Notes under the pieces: generated by a model | The model's input: the letters and a program-made list of their open reading frames with translations, nothing else | The model's database searches: none | Told to the model about the DNA's origin: nothing | Assembly (NCBI GenBank): GCA_903842365.1 | Contig: CAIMLU010000004.1 | Location: forward strand, 1-44,830 | Length of the DNA: 44,830 bases | Reading direction: 5' to 3' | Source: an uncultured bacterium | GTDB taxonomy: Bacteria > Patescibacteriota > Minisyncoccia > Phycocordibacterales > UBA6065 | Part shown: piece after piece, positions 39,620 through 44,830 of the stretch | Numbering within the stretch: position 1 is the stretch's first letter | Layout: the number at the start of each line of letters is the position of its first letter | Made by a program: the position numbers and the translations under genes

Positions 39620-39635
39620 TTAGGGTTAGTTTTGC

Positions 39636-39668
39636 GAGGAGGCTATTTTAACGAGTAGCCTCTTTTTT
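39636..39668 (+). terminator. intrinsic terminator
   Basis: GAGGCTATT...AGTAGCCTC followed by TTTTTT. Confidence 0.7.
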
Positions 39669-39718
39669 ATTCTGACCAGCGAGGAGTGTGGGCGAGCATC
39701 CTCGCACACAACGTCAGA

Positions 39719-39772
39719 GCGACCAAAATCTCTTGAGCAAAGCGATTAGAGATTGGAAGTACTCTTGTGGTG
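39719..39772 (+). repeat. structured repeat module A, copy 1
   Basis: near-identical to 43946-44000, with a compensatory base-pair change. Confidence 0.85.
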
Positions 39773-39861
39773 CGACGTCAGAACAAATTGGTTTGTTCTT
39801 CGAATTCCACAAGCGTCAGCCCAAGGTGGTTTATTGCCTATATTTATGGATAATGGGGGAT

Positions 39862-42689: not shown

Positions 42690-43421
42690 ATGTTTTTTCT
42701 TGTTACTGGAACAGATACAGATAAGGCCCGTGCAAAAGCGCGTGAACTCATTTCGCTCATGGAAAAAAAGCGCCCTGACGCAACGTCAATCCGTGTTCTT
42801 GCTGACACAGCAACAATGAGTATGGTGGATGAATTGGTATTATCTCAAGGCTTATTTGAAGCCAAGACGATCACTTTTTTTGATGAGGTGTTTGAAAATG
42901 AAGACGTTGGAGCACGGGTGATTGCTGTTGTTGATGCGCTTAAATTGTCACAAAACGGTTTTGTTCTTTTCGAAGAAAAACTTTCAAAGAAAAATCTCGA
43001 GATATTGTCGGGTTCTGCAGAGAAAGTGTTTCATTTTGATTCAACAGAACCATCAAGTGATTATTCAATGTTTCCAATCGCTGACGCTTTTGGTTCGTGT
43101 GACAAACGTTCCTTATGGCTCCTTATTCGTGAGGCACTCGATCACGGTTCACCAGCAGAAGAAATTCACGGGATCATGTGGTGGCAGGTGAAGGCAATTG
43201 CAATAGTTCGTATTGCAAAAGATGCTAAATCAGCGGGGCTTGCACCTTTTGTTTTTACAAAAGCAAAACGCTTTAGCATGGCTTTTTCATCAGAACAAAT
43301 TGAAAAAATCATGTGTGATTTGGTCGCCATATACCACAAGGCTCATAGGGGAGAGATTGATTTCAATGTTGCGCTTGAACGCTTTGCTCTCGATTTTCCA
43401 GTGTCACATGTTGAAAAGTAA
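42690..43421 (+). CDS. holA: DNA polymerase III delta subunit-like
   Basis: FLVTGTD, SQGLF..K, FPIADA, helical C-terminal collar (LERF). Confidence 0.7.
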   Translation: MFFLVTGTDTDKARAKARELISLMEKKRPDATSIRVLADTATMSMVDELVLSQGLFEAKTITFFDEVFENEDVGARVIAVVDALKLSQNGFVLFEEKLSKKNLEILSGSAEKVFHFDSTEPSSDYSMFPIADAFGSCDKRSLWLLIREALDHGSPAEEIHGIMWWQVKAIAIVRIAKDAKSAGLAPFVFTKAKRFSMAFSSEQIEKIMCDLVAIYHKAHRGEIDFNVALERFALDFPVSHVEK

Positions 43422-43466
43422 TTAAAACGCTGATAGTATGCCACATACGCACTCAAAACCTCTTTG

Positions 43467-43497
43467 GGTAGAGCGTCTCCCTTTTAAAGGGTGGGTC
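43467..43497 (+). repeat. degenerate internal fragment of tRNA-Lys
   Basis: 28/31 identity to 43539-43569 (3' D-arm, anticodon arm, variable loop). Confidence 0.85.
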
Positions 43498-43521
43498 TGG
43501 AATAGTTACATATAAACACAT

Positions 43522-43594
43522 GCGCCCTTAGCTCAGTTGGTAGAGCATCTCCCTTTTAAGGAGTGGGTCGTTGGTTCGATTCCAACAGGGCGCA
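43522..43594 (+). tRNA. tRNA-Lys(UUU), CCA not encoded
   Basis: GCGCCCT/AGGGCGC acceptor stem, GCTC/GAGC D-stem, CT-TTT-AA anticodon loop, GTTGG-TTCGATT-CCAAC T-arm. Confidence 0.97.
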
Positions 43595-44050
43595 CAAACG
43601 CGATCCAAGAAAACCTGCACTGCTGCAGGTTTTTGCGTTTGTGCGAACCGGAGCGATGTTTGTTCAGTAGAACAAACCGCGAGGTAGGGCCGAGGAAATT
43701 CTGGTTCGACAGAACCAGAATTATCCGTGGCCACAAATCATATGGTGGTTTTCGGTTGTGCTGTGCGAGCCGGAGGCCGACGGGCCGAGGCGGGTGAGTT
43801 CGGGATAAGGGACCCGAACGTAAAACCTTCTTGAGACGGTACTCCGTCCAAAAGGTGTACTGACCATGTAATGGTCGCGAGATTTTTCAGCAGAAAAATA
43901 CTTGTGACCACATCCATGCGAGCCAGGGCCGAGGAATTTTCGAGCGCGACCAAAATTTCTTGAGCGATAGCGATTAGAAATTGGAAGTACTCCTGTGGTG
44001 GCGGCGAGAAAATATCCGTGGCCACAAACTGCCAGTGGCAGTCTTTTTTC
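43591..44050 (+). other. tRNA-trailing nested structured repeat region (candidate ncRNA or non-autonomous element)
   Basis: three GGYCGMGRR-stem-A-YYYGTGRCCACA modules, one copy of module A, many hairpins, ending in ACTGCC-AGT-GGCAGT-CTTTTTT terminator. Confidence 0.6.
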
Positions 44051-44060
44051 CCCCAAACCC

Positions 44061-44088
44061 TTGACACCCCCCTATTTTCCATTACCAT
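44061..44088 (+). promoter_or_regulatory. sigma70 promoter
   Basis: TTGACA-16-TACCAT upstream of the last ORF. Confidence 0.6.
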
Positions 44089-44171
44089 CCCTCCCCGGAT
44101 GAACCTTGTTGTGCATTTTTGCACGACATTGTCTCTGTTCTTCCACAACACAATCAGACTGCCTTAGTTAA

Positions 44172-44830
44172 ATGAAAACCAAATTATTTGGTTCAGTATT
44201 TGTATTAACGAGCGCTCTTCTTCTGAAGAGCGCTTTTGCTGGGACTGTTATATATCAACCGAGTCCATTCAATGGACGAGACATCTGGATTACGAGCCAC
44301 TACCCATACAGCTCAAACGGTGGAGACTACGGACTTGATAATGGTGACATCACTGTCGGTGGTTGGGGCGACTGGTATAACGGCGCGATCAAGTTCGATC
44401 TCGAAGGATTACCAAACACACCAACCAACGTCGAAATGTGGCTTTTGCCCCATACATATCCGAACAGTACCTCTCAACGCGTTGGTATGAAATTCTACGT
44501 TCTCACCAATACTTGGAATACTAGTTCGGGTTGGTATAACACATCGTGGACAGGCATGCTGCTCGGTACTGCACCTGCTCCGGTAGTTGATAGGTGGAAC
44601 CCGTACGGGATTACCGTCACGTACAACCAGTGGAAAAGTGGAAGCAGGGTAAACCAGGGATTCATGCTTGCTCCAACAGGCAATAATAACCAGTTTAACT
44701 ACTTCTACGCTTCCAATCACACGGTTCCGTCTCAGCGGCCCAAGCTTGTGATTACGTACAATGATGCCTCGTATCCTACGCCTCCCGCCTTCAAGTTACC
44801 GCTTCCAAGTGGTTACAAGTGGTGTGTGAC
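44172..44830 (+). CDS. secreted DNRLRE/CBM96-like domain protein, probably followed by an M23 peptidase domain; truncated by the window end
   Basis: manual translation MKTKLFGSVFVLTSALLLKSAFA|GTVIYQP...DIWI...IKFDLEGLP...W...NQGFML...FYASNH....RPKLVITY...FKLPLPSGYKWCV; absent from the ORF track because there is no stop. Confidence 0.75.
   Translation, partial: MKTKLFGSVFVLTSALLLKSAFAGTVIYQPSPFNGRDIWITSHYPYSSNGGDYGLDNGDITVGGWGDWYNGAIKFDLEGLPNTPTNVEMWLLPHTYPNSTSQRVGMKFYVLTNTWNTSSGWYNTSWTGMLLGTAPAPVVDRWNPYGITVTYNQWKSGSRVNQGFMLAPTGNNNQFNYFYASNHTVPSQRPKLVITYNDASYPTPPAFKLPLPSGYKWCV

Follow-up and report, generated by a model that had tools for sequence, protein, structure and literature searches.

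Structured repeats with an RNA-like core at tRNA gene ends of CPR bacteria: a nested array behind a tRNA-Lys gene and a candidate new RNA family

Described repeats and tRNA-linked RNAs

REP sequences and their BIME mosaics, found in enterobacteria and pseudomonads, are short extragenic hairpin-forming repeats that occur in multiple copies and often lie behind genes; the genome carries a gene for RAYT, a Y1 transposase, typically flanked by the repeats. The MITE-like elements Correia, RPE and ERIC are non-coding, shorter than 300 nt, multi-copy and structured when transcribed. Small RNAs that are flanked by tRNAs or resemble them include tRNA-snoRNA dicistrons, tmRNA and bacterial Y-RNA-like RNAs, and group II introns of class C have the intron RNA domains, usually a reverse transcriptase, and a habit of inserting behind terminators.

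The locus analysed here, positions 43596-44050 of the window (the whole 44,830-nt stretch of DNA under study), follows a tRNA-Lys(UUU) gene. It is best explained as a lineage-specific stack of one canonical and two variant units with two secondary hairpin modules nested in them, and the units as members of a family of dispersed non-coding elements confined to genomes of the CPR/Patescibacteria type. The core of a canonical unit, about 70 nt long, consists of a GA-rich internal loop (the bracket) and two hairpins, P2 of 4 bp and the bulged P3 of 16 bp, and it is accompanied by arms that correspond to the end of the adjoining tRNA gene.

Like REP/BIME sequences, the units are short, extragenic, hairpin-forming and present in many copies and in mosaic clusters, often behind genes; the criterion of that class, dispersed extragenic imperfect palindromes in many copies, describes them well. 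They differ in that their orientation is fixed relative to the tRNA genes, their core of an internal loop and two hairpins is more complex than a hairpin, their arms are copied from the neighbouring tRNA, and the conservation of their core reaches across much more distant lineages. An intact RAYT-type transposase was also missing from the genome, where the single Y1_Tnp match is a broken 58-aa fragment with an internal stop, and a REP/RAYT origin was rejected on this ground; the site of the fragment has no listed match to the modules of the region and does not belong to the 70 largest repeat islands listed. With MITE-like elements the units share their non-coding nature, a length below 300 nt, multiple copies, filled and empty sites and nested insertion, but their inverted arms come from the adjacent tRNA instead of being intrinsic to the element, target duplications of fixed length are absent from them, and no related insertion sequence or autonomous transposase element was found among the families searched in the source genome or around 80 CPR loci. 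We know of no REP, MITE or SINE element with arms copied from a neighbouring tRNA.

As for tRNA-flanked and tRNA-like RNAs, a place beside tRNAs may allow processing enzymes to set the ends of the units, and their closing stem imitates the acceptor and T stems; the units are unlike them in copying the particular neighbour tRNA, in carrying the core in place of the T-loop, in having a processing that is only predicted, and in matching none of the Rfam models of those RNAs. Class C introns share only the position behind a terminator, since neither an Rfam intron model nor, in the source genome, the reverse transcriptase family RVT_1 gave a match. In the rRNA operons of E. coli, the available part of PMC8144298 describes sRNA genes that lie between dual terminators and are read by read-through; this order of stable-RNA gene, terminator, read-through structured RNA and second terminator is the layout of 43522-44049, although the RNA described there is a different one, which has a single copy in each operon, lacks a modular build and carries no arms derived from the gene before it. 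TIGR arrays, according to the available part of PMC12045711, consist of repeats of 8-12 nt alternating with 9-nt spacers, next to a gene with a Nop domain. They resemble our array as tandem structured non-coding units of parasitic bacteria with a terminator at the end, but our units are much larger and linked to tRNAs; a TIGR array or TIGR-Tas system as described there was rejected because such periodicity is absent from the sequence and no Nop-domain match was obtained in the source genome.

The array downstream of tRNA-Lys(UUU)

The features of the locus are listed below, with R1 denoting the model used in the search for cores and C followed by a number denoting other contigs of the source genome.

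43411..43439, + strand: promoter-like site, 9/12 hexamer matches and a TG extension (consensus match only)
43460..43497, + strand: partial degenerate tRNA-Lys copy (D-arm to anticodon-arm region), 38 nt, 84% identity to 43532-43569, 72 nt upstream of the real gene
43522..43595, + strand: tRNA-Lys(UUU), CCA not encoded; Rfam tRNA match, 72.2 bits
43591..43645, + strand: trailer hairpin, its outer 11-bp stem made of the last 4 tRNA nt and trailer (11-nt inverted repeat 43591-43601 / 43635-43645)
43610-43633, + strand: inner trailer hairpin of 10 bp, A-tract/GC/T-tract (inverted-repeat search)
43646..43737, + strand: unit 1 with variant core (sequence and fold; weak R1 match, 16.1 bits)
43648-43653 with 43680-43684, + strand: GA-rich bracket of unit 1, enclosing the long P2 hairpin 43654-43679
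43688-43732, + strand: P3-variant hairpin of unit 1, then an ACAAA tail
43738..43761, + strand: linker of units 1 and 2, a weak hairpin and T-run (sequence reading)
43762..43793, + strand: canonical core of unit 2, 5' half with bracket and P2 (stem 4 bp, loop 4 nt); R1 match 43760-43802, 21.8 bits
43794..43872, + strand: 79-nt insert in unit 2 between P2 and P3, three small hairpins (empty site on C43)
43873..43912, + strand: P3 of unit 2, bulged canonical hairpin of 16 bp, two G-U pairs conserved (R1, 56.3 bits)
43917..44028, + strand: unit 3, a P3-variant hairpin without bracket and P2; stem 43927-43935 with 44015-44023 (repeat search)
43946..44000, + strand: 55-nt module in the loop of unit 3 (other copies in the source genome; empty site on C41)
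44028..44049, + strand: closing intrinsic-terminator-like hairpin and T-run (terminator scan)

A first-pass annotation, made from the sequence alone, had pointed out an ORF-less, GC-richer stretch of about 450 nt composed of recurring modules, and its description of the locus was confirmed, every feature being present where it had been placed. The stretch 43596-44050 is ORF-poor with a GC content of 51% against 42%, and the proposed two-part module recurs, 43679-43700 resembling 43918-43939 at 86% and 43719-43737 resembling 44010-44028 at 95%. The covariant hairpin is present at 43873-43912, the 55-nt module carried by the third copy could be located, and the first helix, thought to capture the tRNA 3' end, corresponds to the 11-nt inverted repeat that overlaps this end. 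The terminator expected to close the region is the only clean one that the terminator scan gave in the tRNA-plus-array stretch, with the GC-rich hairpin and following T-run that define an intrinsic terminator. Hairpin 43610-43633 also looks terminator-like to the eye, and it is absent from the scan list because its T-run pairs with the A-tract. The promoter-like site in the list has no second one beside it, either before the tRNA or within tRNA and array; the promoter scan gave none in 43440-44060. The predicted folding energy of 43596-44050 is -192.3 kcal/mol on the + strand versus a shuffle mean of -142.6 (z -7.3; 0/100 shuffles fold as well) and only -164.2 kcal/mol on the - strand.

The units of the window are partly truncated and interrupted by inserts, and their parts can be found elsewhere in the source genome. 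Paralogues of unit 1 lie 3' of tRNA-Ile on contig C41 and 3' of tRNA-Lys(CUU) on contig C5, and the linker with the start of unit 2 recurs on contigs C65 and C41. The 5' half of unit 2 is 100% identical to C43:12341-12305, and an empty site of the 79-nt insert, with both flanks contiguous and 100% identical, is found at C43:12265-12341, while a second filled copy lies at C10:12480-12558. The 55-nt module occurs seven times in the source genome, including a tandem pair and a copy at 39719-39772 of the window; it is missing at C41:1437-1439, the uninterrupted version of unit 3 being C41:1409-1465, and an empty site for the copy on C38 is found in C63. Target duplication was absent at both the 55-nt and the 79-nt modules beyond 1-2 ambiguous bases. 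These modules, which recur, covary and nest with exact filled and empty sites, agree with the earlier idea of a family of composable structured repeats. In two relatives (G013 and G003) the homologous neighbourhood of the gene and tRNA-Lys(UUU) has no array; the protein adjacent to the locus is 39-43% identical between the source genome and four of five compared genomes, and 29% in G003.

The conserved core and the copied tRNA arms

The secondary structure of the core is kept by covariation, and on one strand only. In alignment A1 (72 sequences, with pair counts over 69) the covariation score is 0.186 versus a shuffle mean of 0.064, and a score as high was reached in 0/500 shuffles. Pairs of P2 have changed on both sides in 10-27 of the 69 sequences, the bracket pair occurs as CG in 32, AU in 19, UA in 5 and GC in 3, and the G-U pairs of P3 are kept in 66-69 of 69. 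In alignment A2, whose 36 matches were picked without the 25-mer from the P3 centre but were fitted to the model, double changes are found at 19/22 pairs, and 95.3% of cells are paired versus 75.4% in shuffles. Model R1 gives the P3 of unit 2 its 56.3 bits on the + strand and 26 bits on the - strand. Kink-turns, in which tandem G-A pairs adjoin a helix with a 3-nt bulge, are bound by L7Ae-type proteins; in the alignment the bracket has room for two G-A pairs beside P2, with a 1-nt bulge, and a search of the source genome for an L7Ae-family protein as partner of the GA bracket gave no match.

A model search for further copies, as the first-pass annotation had proposed, gave 27 R1 matches at about 25 places in the source genome, and the region has 42 BLAST matches, its self-match included, in the same genome. 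The core was also found in 30/39 other genomes of the same order with 1-11 copies each versus 23 in the source genome, so copies per genome range from 0 to 23. Exact matches to the 25-nt centre of P3 were obtained in more than 119 CPR stretches among the genome contigs searched, and among the 80 matches listed all belong to CPR groups or to an unnamed bacterium, in line with the earlier guess of a CPR origin. Other sampled genomes of the phylum match the model in at least 4 of 150 cases, a lower bound because stricter filters were used and only 32 candidates were scored per genome; a pattern scan for the 25-mer with up to two mismatches found it in 1/400 sampled genomes. Rfam 15 gave only tRNA at the gathering score over the window, nothing near threshold and chance-level matches at E up to 10 in 43400-44250, and only tRNA and tmRNA at fifteen further unit-bearing loci; its models for GOLLD, ROOL, OLE, HEARO, raiA, ribozymes and group II introns did not match. 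No description of the core was found in the openly searchable literature either (subscription journals and supplements lay outside this search). The family is thus apparently undescribed, as had been proposed, and its conserved, covarying, RNA-like and Rfam-unmatched core, linked to tRNAs in several groups of CPR bacteria, makes it a candidate for a new RNA family.

The predicted association of the modules with tRNAs is evident in many genomes. A tRNA or tmRNA gene lies within 400 nt on the same strand at 62/80 CPR loci and on the opposite strand at 1, and in the source genome 19/25 places are near such a gene on the same strand and 1 is near one on the opposite strand. Twelve of the 80 CPR loci are situated between two co-oriented tRNAs 110-219 nt apart, 7 of the 80 are in the spacer from tRNA-Lys(CUU) to tRNA-Leu(UAG), and units occupy spacers of tRNA clusters, e.g. 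in the four-tRNA cluster of locus L042. The arms of the units are copies of whichever tRNA end adjoins, the near arm inverted and the far arm direct. Among CPR loci with a tRNA upstream, and with an exact copy of at least 8 nt as the criterion, the near arm is an inverted copy of the 3' end of the upstream tRNA at 20/40 loci versus 3/40 for the control with other tRNAs, and the far arm is a direct copy at 22/40 versus 0/40; both arms align to the tRNA end at 21 of 50 CPR loci examined. In the source genome, a direct copy of the last 12 nt lies 127-304 nt downstream of 12/42 tRNA/tmRNA genes, and such copies extend 1-8 nt into the trailer with a length of about 14 to more than 20 nt. The trailer-hairpin design, whose inverted copies are cognate to each tRNA and run on through trailer and hairpin, follows 22/39 tRNA/tmRNA genes versus 26/2000 random places in the source genome; it is seen 3' of tmRNA and of many different tRNAs, and some units are flanked by incomplete tRNA duplicates up to 42-46 nt long. 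Twelve source-genome units have the inverted copy at their start and a direct copy of T-stem and acceptor strand at their end, while the closing stems of the window's own units comprise only the last tRNA bases and trailer and form no acceptor/T minihelix.

Of 248 aligned arm columns (21 cases) 39 vary, but never with both arms sharing a base that differs from the tRNA; because compensatory change is absent, there is no sign of RNA-level selection on the closing stem. Because the arms include trailer bases, they have been copied from DNA or the primary transcript, not from mature tRNA. Two other origins of the arms were rejected: tRNA-primed reverse transcription with a primer-binding-site-like arm, because the copies run into genomic trailer and not into CCA, and a duplicated tRNA with the core inserted in its T-loop, since the T-loop is inverted in the near arm.

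The P3 hairpin with flanking core was found in RNA-library contigs of three studies, which is weak evidence of transcription because such libraries can hold DNA. On the region itself such contigs cover no more than the tRNA, the hairpin P3 and a portion of the 55-nt module (uncovered parts being uninformative), and one contig joins 43793 directly to 43873, i.e. lacks the 79-nt insert. In the source genome, which has an RNase P RNA gene, a terminator-like hairpin usually stands between tRNA and unit, and co-transcription therefore needs read-through. The three-segment layout of tRNA end, inverted copy and direct copy would allow a switch that gates tRNA 3' maturation, as the first-pass annotation had suggested. 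Runs from peat, soil, wastewater and gut held small shares of the words of the region and give no evidence of habitat.

Explanations for the repeats and their significance

The reading that we prefer, with a probability of roughly 0.5, is that of a non-autonomous, structure-constrained element which colonises tRNA gene ends and is co-transcribed as trailer or spacer RNA. Such an element would spread or duplicate at tRNA gene ends, probably via recombination or template switching anchored on the tRNA sequence, and the resulting RNA would be a very stable structured trailer or spacer. The co-occurring mobilising enzyme that had been suggested as worth looking for was found neither among the families searched in the source genome nor among the ORFs around 80 CPR loci. 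The only integrase-family gene of the source genome, presumably of Xer type, is on another contig (C58), and IS110 with a bridge RNA was rejected since the weak DEDD match, below the family cut-off, is by reading a 130-aa RuvX/YqgF-like ORF. No protein recurs as a neighbour among 489 ORFs around the 80 loci, where the commonest neighbour families occur at only 11 and 8 loci and by reading resemble RbfA and IF2, ordinary operon neighbours. A search of 2.9 million viral contigs for carriage by phages found no exact match to the 25-mer.

Whether the RNA serves the cell or is merely tolerated has roughly even odds, and the presence in most genomes of the order together with the strong conservation of the core is as compatible with a useful RNA as with a selfish one. 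The leading alternative, less probable than the element but worth keeping in mind, is a beneficial small RNA family that RNase P and RNase Z cut out of tRNA transcripts via acceptor/T-stem mimicry, its core binding a protein or ligand, or else a three-segment switch that retains or frees the tRNA 3' end. It can draw on a core whose sequence and structure are both conserved, its G-U pairs being in the tRNA-sense strand, on 30/39 genomes of the order that carry the core although the adjacent protein is only 39-43% identical (29% in G003), on the co-orientation of 62 to 1, on occupied spacers such as those of L042, on the RNase P RNA gene and, weakly, on the RNA-library contigs; the dual-terminator sRNA genes in the available part of PMC8144298 provide an analogue by design. 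Against it stand a copy number between 0 and 23, the empty tRNA-Lys locus of the relatives, arms that decay without compensation, the truncated and insert-interrupted units of the window, the few matches in phylum-wide samples (4/150 by the model under stricter filters, 1/400 by the 25-mer with up to two mismatches), and the failure to find an L7Ae-type or Nop-type partner protein in the source genome.

The direct copies of tRNA 3' ends behind 12/42 genes and the partial tRNA duplicates would also be expected of scars left by a site-specifically integrated phage, satellite or island, with the direct copy as the old attachment site and the rest as decayed cargo. We consider this improbable: the bounded segments are 130-320 nt long and gene-free, with neither integrase nor cargo, the lone integrase-family gene lies elsewhere, viral contigs lack the 25-mer, an inverted near arm and a conserved core are foreign to attachment-site scars, and tmRNA and many different tRNAs show the same design. 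More improbable still is the growth of palindromes without any element, in which template switching occurs at the terminator hairpins that follow highly transcribed tRNA genes, copies flanking sequence across to the opposite side and makes ever longer nested hairpins devoid of function or mobility; cognate inverted copies running through trailer and hairpin, plainly decaying arms and the missing enzyme suit it, but the conserved core largely refutes it, because it explains neither the same core of about 70 nt at about 25 places of the genome, in other families and other CPR groups, nor its covariation and conserved G-U pairs, nor how identical modules of 55 nt and 79 nt came to be inserted precisely at sites unrelated to each other. 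The first-pass annotation had also considered one large ncRNA dedicated to the locus, which would be of the GOLLD, ROOL or OLE kind and to which the length of about 450 nt, the very strong predicted folding and the adjoining tRNA lend some appeal. This claim is not supported as worded and is the least credible of all, contradicted because the parts are dispersed: the region splits into units that occur elsewhere in the genome separately and in other arrangements, the array is absent beside tRNA-Lys in the two relatives, and Rfam gave no match even at E up to 10.

For the non-autonomous element, the closing stem of the compact form (an example is locus L057 at about 1630-1760) mimics tRNA acceptor and T stems, and tRNA-processing enzymes could therefore release the unit. 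A bolder and rather doubtful version is that an RNA core of about 70 nt colonises tRNA and tmRNA ends, dresses itself in inverted and direct copies of the top half of the host tRNA, is excised by tRNA-processing enzymes as a stable tRNA-mimicking small RNA, and spreads within and between CPR lineages without an enzyme of its own by using the universally conserved tRNA sequence as a recombination anchor. If true, it would combine a mobile element with a natural system for "tRNA-guided RNA release", and it might also regulate the tRNA next to it.

The copied arms suggest that DNA is made or moved at tRNA genes by a so far unrecognised route. CPR genomes are tiny, yet short structured repeats make up about 4.6% of the source genome (813 kb), and about half of its tRNA genes carry them. 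Assemblies also break at the repeats (of the 70 largest islands of repeats listed, at least 13 abut a contig start), and tRNA and gene calling in CPR genomes can be misled by them. If tRNA-processing enzymes do excise the units, these would be a natural counterpart of engineered tRNA-flanked RNA release.

Anatomy of the locus and its dispersed modules

The ~455 nt lying 3' of tRNA-Lys(UUU) hold short mechanical ORFs only and have a GC content of 51%, against 41.6% for the genome; the folding energy of the plus strand is -192.3 kcal/mol, with shuffles averaging -142.6 (z -7.3; equalled by 0 of 100 shuffles), and that of the minus strand is -164.2 kcal/mol. The first-pass annotation had read this region as a nest of recurring modules, and every repeat that it listed was found in place. 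The core of a unit, about 70 nt long, is a GA-rich bracket around a 4-bp hairpin (P2), followed by a 16-bp bulged hairpin (P3).

Features of the window locus
43411-43439: promoter-like site upstream of tRNA-Lys
43522-43595, plus strand: tRNA-Lys(UUU), followed by the region
43646-43737: unit 1, variant core
43762-43912: unit 2, canonical core interrupted by a 79-nt insert
43917-44028: unit 3, P3-variant hairpin without bracket and P2, with a 55-nt module within its loop
44028-44049: terminator-like site, the sole clean one in the region

R1, a model of the core, confirmed this three-unit anatomy with scores of 56.3 bits (43826-43910), 21.8 bits (43760-43802) and 16.1 bits (43667-43733); on the minus strand P3 reached just 26 bits. 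Positions 43460-43497, 72 nt upstream of the gene, carry a degenerate tRNA-Lys copy spanning the D-arm to the anticodon arm (84% over 38 nt), which may be a remnant of a unit of the type that precedes a tRNA and duplicates its 5' part in direct orientation. On the 3' side of the array, positions 44050-44183, which take in a promoter-like site (44061-88) and, from 44172, the first part of a gene for a signal-peptide protein, are repeated at 91-95% on C46:1-160 and C22:317-434, and look like an upstream region common to a paralogous secreted-protein family.

The genome (G000; 813 kb, 66 contigs including the window as C4, 99% complete) gave 42 BLAST matches to the region, the self-match counted, and a finer search found a separate copy set for each part of it. 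Two adjoining stretches of C43 reproduce 43758-43794 and 43873-43913, each at 100% identity; a further adjoining pair, on C41, matches 43918-43946 and 44002-44028; C10 matches 43769-43897 at 97% identity; 43946-44000 has six further copies in the genome, one at 39719-39772 of the window and two in tandem on C63. Because the copy sets are separate and the flanks adjoin each other elsewhere, the 79 nt at 43794-43872 and the 55 nt at 43946-44000 are inserts, and precise empty sites occur in the genome for both, with a target duplication of at most 1-2 ambiguous bases. The 55-nt copy at 39719-39772 indicates that modules occur beyond tRNA trailers too; it lies in the intergenic stretch 39620-39850, 5' of a P-loop ATPase gene that we take to be TsaE/YjeE-like, within a longer segment common to C52:20160-20300 and C63:13760-13950.

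Short repeats occupy 37,105 bases genome-wide (4.6%) in 232 islands, and no fewer than 13 of the 70 largest islands listed abut a contig start (C46, C27, C25, C15, C44, C65, C50, C31, C62, C22, C29, C3 and C59). The repeat family is probably a main cause of the assembly's fragmentation into 66 contigs.

Structure and spread of the core

In the sequences flanking the 25-nt P3 centre in other CPR genomes, a compact canonical unit runs from a near arm through a short GA-rich junction, the bracket around the 4-bp hairpin (4-nt loop) and the 16-bp bulged hairpin to a far arm, which a small extra hairpin sometimes precedes. Alignment A1 comprised 72 such sequences (69 distinct rows). In it, P2 pairs were changed on both sides in 10-27 of 69 rows, the bracket-closing pair was CG in 32, AU in 19, UA in 5 and GC in 3, and two G-U pairs of P3 were retained in 66-69 of 69. 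Its covariation score was 0.186; shuffles averaged 0.064, none of the 500 reaching the observed score, and slid controls gave 0.009-0.038. Since the search pattern had fixed inner P3 in A1, we built R1 and a second alignment, A2, of 36 R1 matches from the genome and its relatives; fitted to the model and including a few overlapping antisense matches, it showed double changes in 19 of 22 pairs overall and in 13 of the 16 P3 pairs, with 95.3% of cells paired against 75.4% in shuffles. Judged from these substitution patterns, the core structure is real and lies on the tRNA-sense strand.

The 27 R1 matches in G000 fall at about 25 places. Of the 39 other members of the order scanned with normal filters, 30 matched with 1-11 copies each, G000 being highest with 23 in that run; BLAST, run on 40 other members, detected parts of the region in 21. 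BLAST also found the 37-40-nt hairpin in other families at 95-100% identity, and an exact scan for the 25-nt P3 centre, one genome per species, found more than 119 stretches; the titles of the 80 matches listed name Saccharibacteria, Paceibacterota, Parcubacteria, Nomurabacteria, Vogelbacteria, Adlerbacteria, Minisyncoccia, Levyibacteriota, the Patescibacteria group, or simply bacterium. An even phylum sample yielded R1 matches in 4 of 150 other genomes (stricter filters, 32 candidates scored per genome), the 25-mer with up to 2 mismatches was found in 1 of 400 other genomes, and the exact 25-mer was absent from the viral contigs scanned. The family is thus common in the window's order and scattered elsewhere in the phylum.

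Association with tRNA genes and origin of the arms

A same-strand tRNA or tmRNA gene lies within 400 nt at 62 of the 80 CPR loci listed (upstream only at 38, on both sides at 12, downstream only at 12), and the nearest tRNA is on the opposite strand at 1 of the 80. The two-sided loci are 110-219-nt spacers between co-oriented tRNAs, 7 of the 12 between tRNA-Lys(CUU) and tRNA-Leu(UAG) and one in a four-tRNA cluster. Within 700 nt in G000, 19 of 25 places have a same-strand tRNA or tmRNA, one an opposite-strand gene and five none.

ARAGORN called 41 tRNAs and a tmRNA in G000. Behind most of these genes come an A-rich spacer, a GC hairpin with a T-run, and an inverted copy of the tRNA's own 3' end, in this order. 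Of the 39 genes with enough downstream sequence, 22 have a perfect inverted repeat of 9 nt or more across the 3' end, against 26 of 2000 random places. In 12 of 42 genes the last 12 nt occur again in direct orientation (up to 1 mismatch), 127-304 nt downstream; the inverted and the direct copy together close a unit with a stem that repeats the tRNA acceptor and T stems. The direct copies extend 1-8 nt past the discriminator base into the genomic trailer, indicating that their source was not a mature CCA-ended tRNA. The window's trailer type was found again behind tRNA-Lys(CUU) on C5, where the inverted copy carries the counterpart of a base change in the tRNA end, and behind tRNA-Ile(GAU) on C41. 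The tmRNA gene (C63:1080-1479) has a trailer of the tRNA type (hairpin, inverted copy of the 3' end, core unit at C63:875-987), and a unit stands behind a tmRNA at 2 of the 80 CPR loci also. In tRNA-Thr(CGU) (C18:30431-30504), the gene as called has a mismatched first acceptor pair, whereas perfect pairing is expected of the copies in the unit behind it; this points either to a change in the tRNA later than the copying or to a slightly inaccurate gene call.

Where the tRNA is upstream of a CPR locus, 8 nt or more of the tRNA 3' end recur exactly, in inverted orientation, in the near arm at 20 of 40 loci, against 3 of 40 for an other-tRNA control, and the far arm has a direct copy at 22 of 40 (control 0 of 40); where the tRNA is downstream, its 5' part recurs in direct orientation, over up to 42 nt, in the far (left) arm at 9 of 22 loci (control 1 of 22). 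In a three-way comparison of 21 cases with both arms alignable (248 columns), all three sequences agreed in 209 columns, the near arm alone differed in 30, the far arm alone in 7 and all differed in 2; both arms agreed against the tRNA in 0 of 248. This pattern points to decaying copies of the tRNA end rather than a stem maintained through compensatory changes of its own. Some units in other CPR genomes (L055, L072 and L097) lie within long partial duplicates of the adjacent tRNA (5' part up to 42-46 nt), the core coming after the D-arm or variable region of the duplicate, and look like disrupted second tRNA gene copies.

Turnover, machinery and interpretation

The protein encoded upstream of the window tRNA is 39-43% identical to homologues in two genomes of the same genus (G001, G002) and two of the same family (G006, G013), and 29% in a fifth (G003). 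G013 and G003 have the same gene followed by tRNA-Lys(UUU) without the array, and in G002 the tRNA is inverted with a different unit; the window array is therefore lineage-specific. Searches of G000 gave no match to RVT_1, Nop-domain or L7Ae-family proteins, one integrase-family gene (C58), and one broken IS200/IS605-type Y1 transposase remnant (C29:25728-25886, or 1477-1653 of locus L020; the ORF has 58 aa and the matched stretch contains a stop), at which the module searches list no match to the region. An IS110-type candidate was rejected as a sub-threshold match in an ORF that is presumably RuvX/YqgF-like. The proteins beside the core at the 80 CPR loci include no recurring family.

RNase P RNA is present in G000. 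As indirect evidence of expression, RNA-library contigs of other organisms from three studies (wastewater, peat and gut) carry P3 with the canonical upstream flank, although such libraries can hold DNA, and one P3-bearing contig has no 79-nt insert; the summed depth in one run was ~220 for P3 and ~2800 for the tRNA, contig depth being a poor measure of expression.

An Rfam scan, which the first-pass annotation had proposed, matched the tRNA alone in the region at gathering scores and at E values up to 10, and the family itself is without an Rfam match. The full-text literature, with subscription journals and supplementary files outside its scope, gave no description of the family, and an earlier one is possible. 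The TIGR arrays of TIGR-Tas described in PMC12045711 differ from the window's units.

The family may have a selfish, mobile-like history, as suggested by differences in copy number, arrays present or absent at matching loci through gain and loss, nested modules, uncompensated arms, and near-identical cores scattered across distant lineages. It may equally be a useful RNA, for its covariation is strand-specific, its co-orientation with the tRNA strict, its location inside tRNA operons, and its presence extends to most genomes of the order. The two readings fit the data alike, and we assign a probability of about one half to the composite reading: a non-autonomous element whose conserved core would need a single-strand fold, which would settle at the ends of tRNA genes with arms templated by its target, presumably by target-anchored recombination or template switching, and which would be transcribed with the tRNA as trailer or spacer. 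The gate on tRNA 3' maturation put forward in the first-pass annotation is possible, since the tRNA end and the far arm are alternative pairing partners of the inverted copy.
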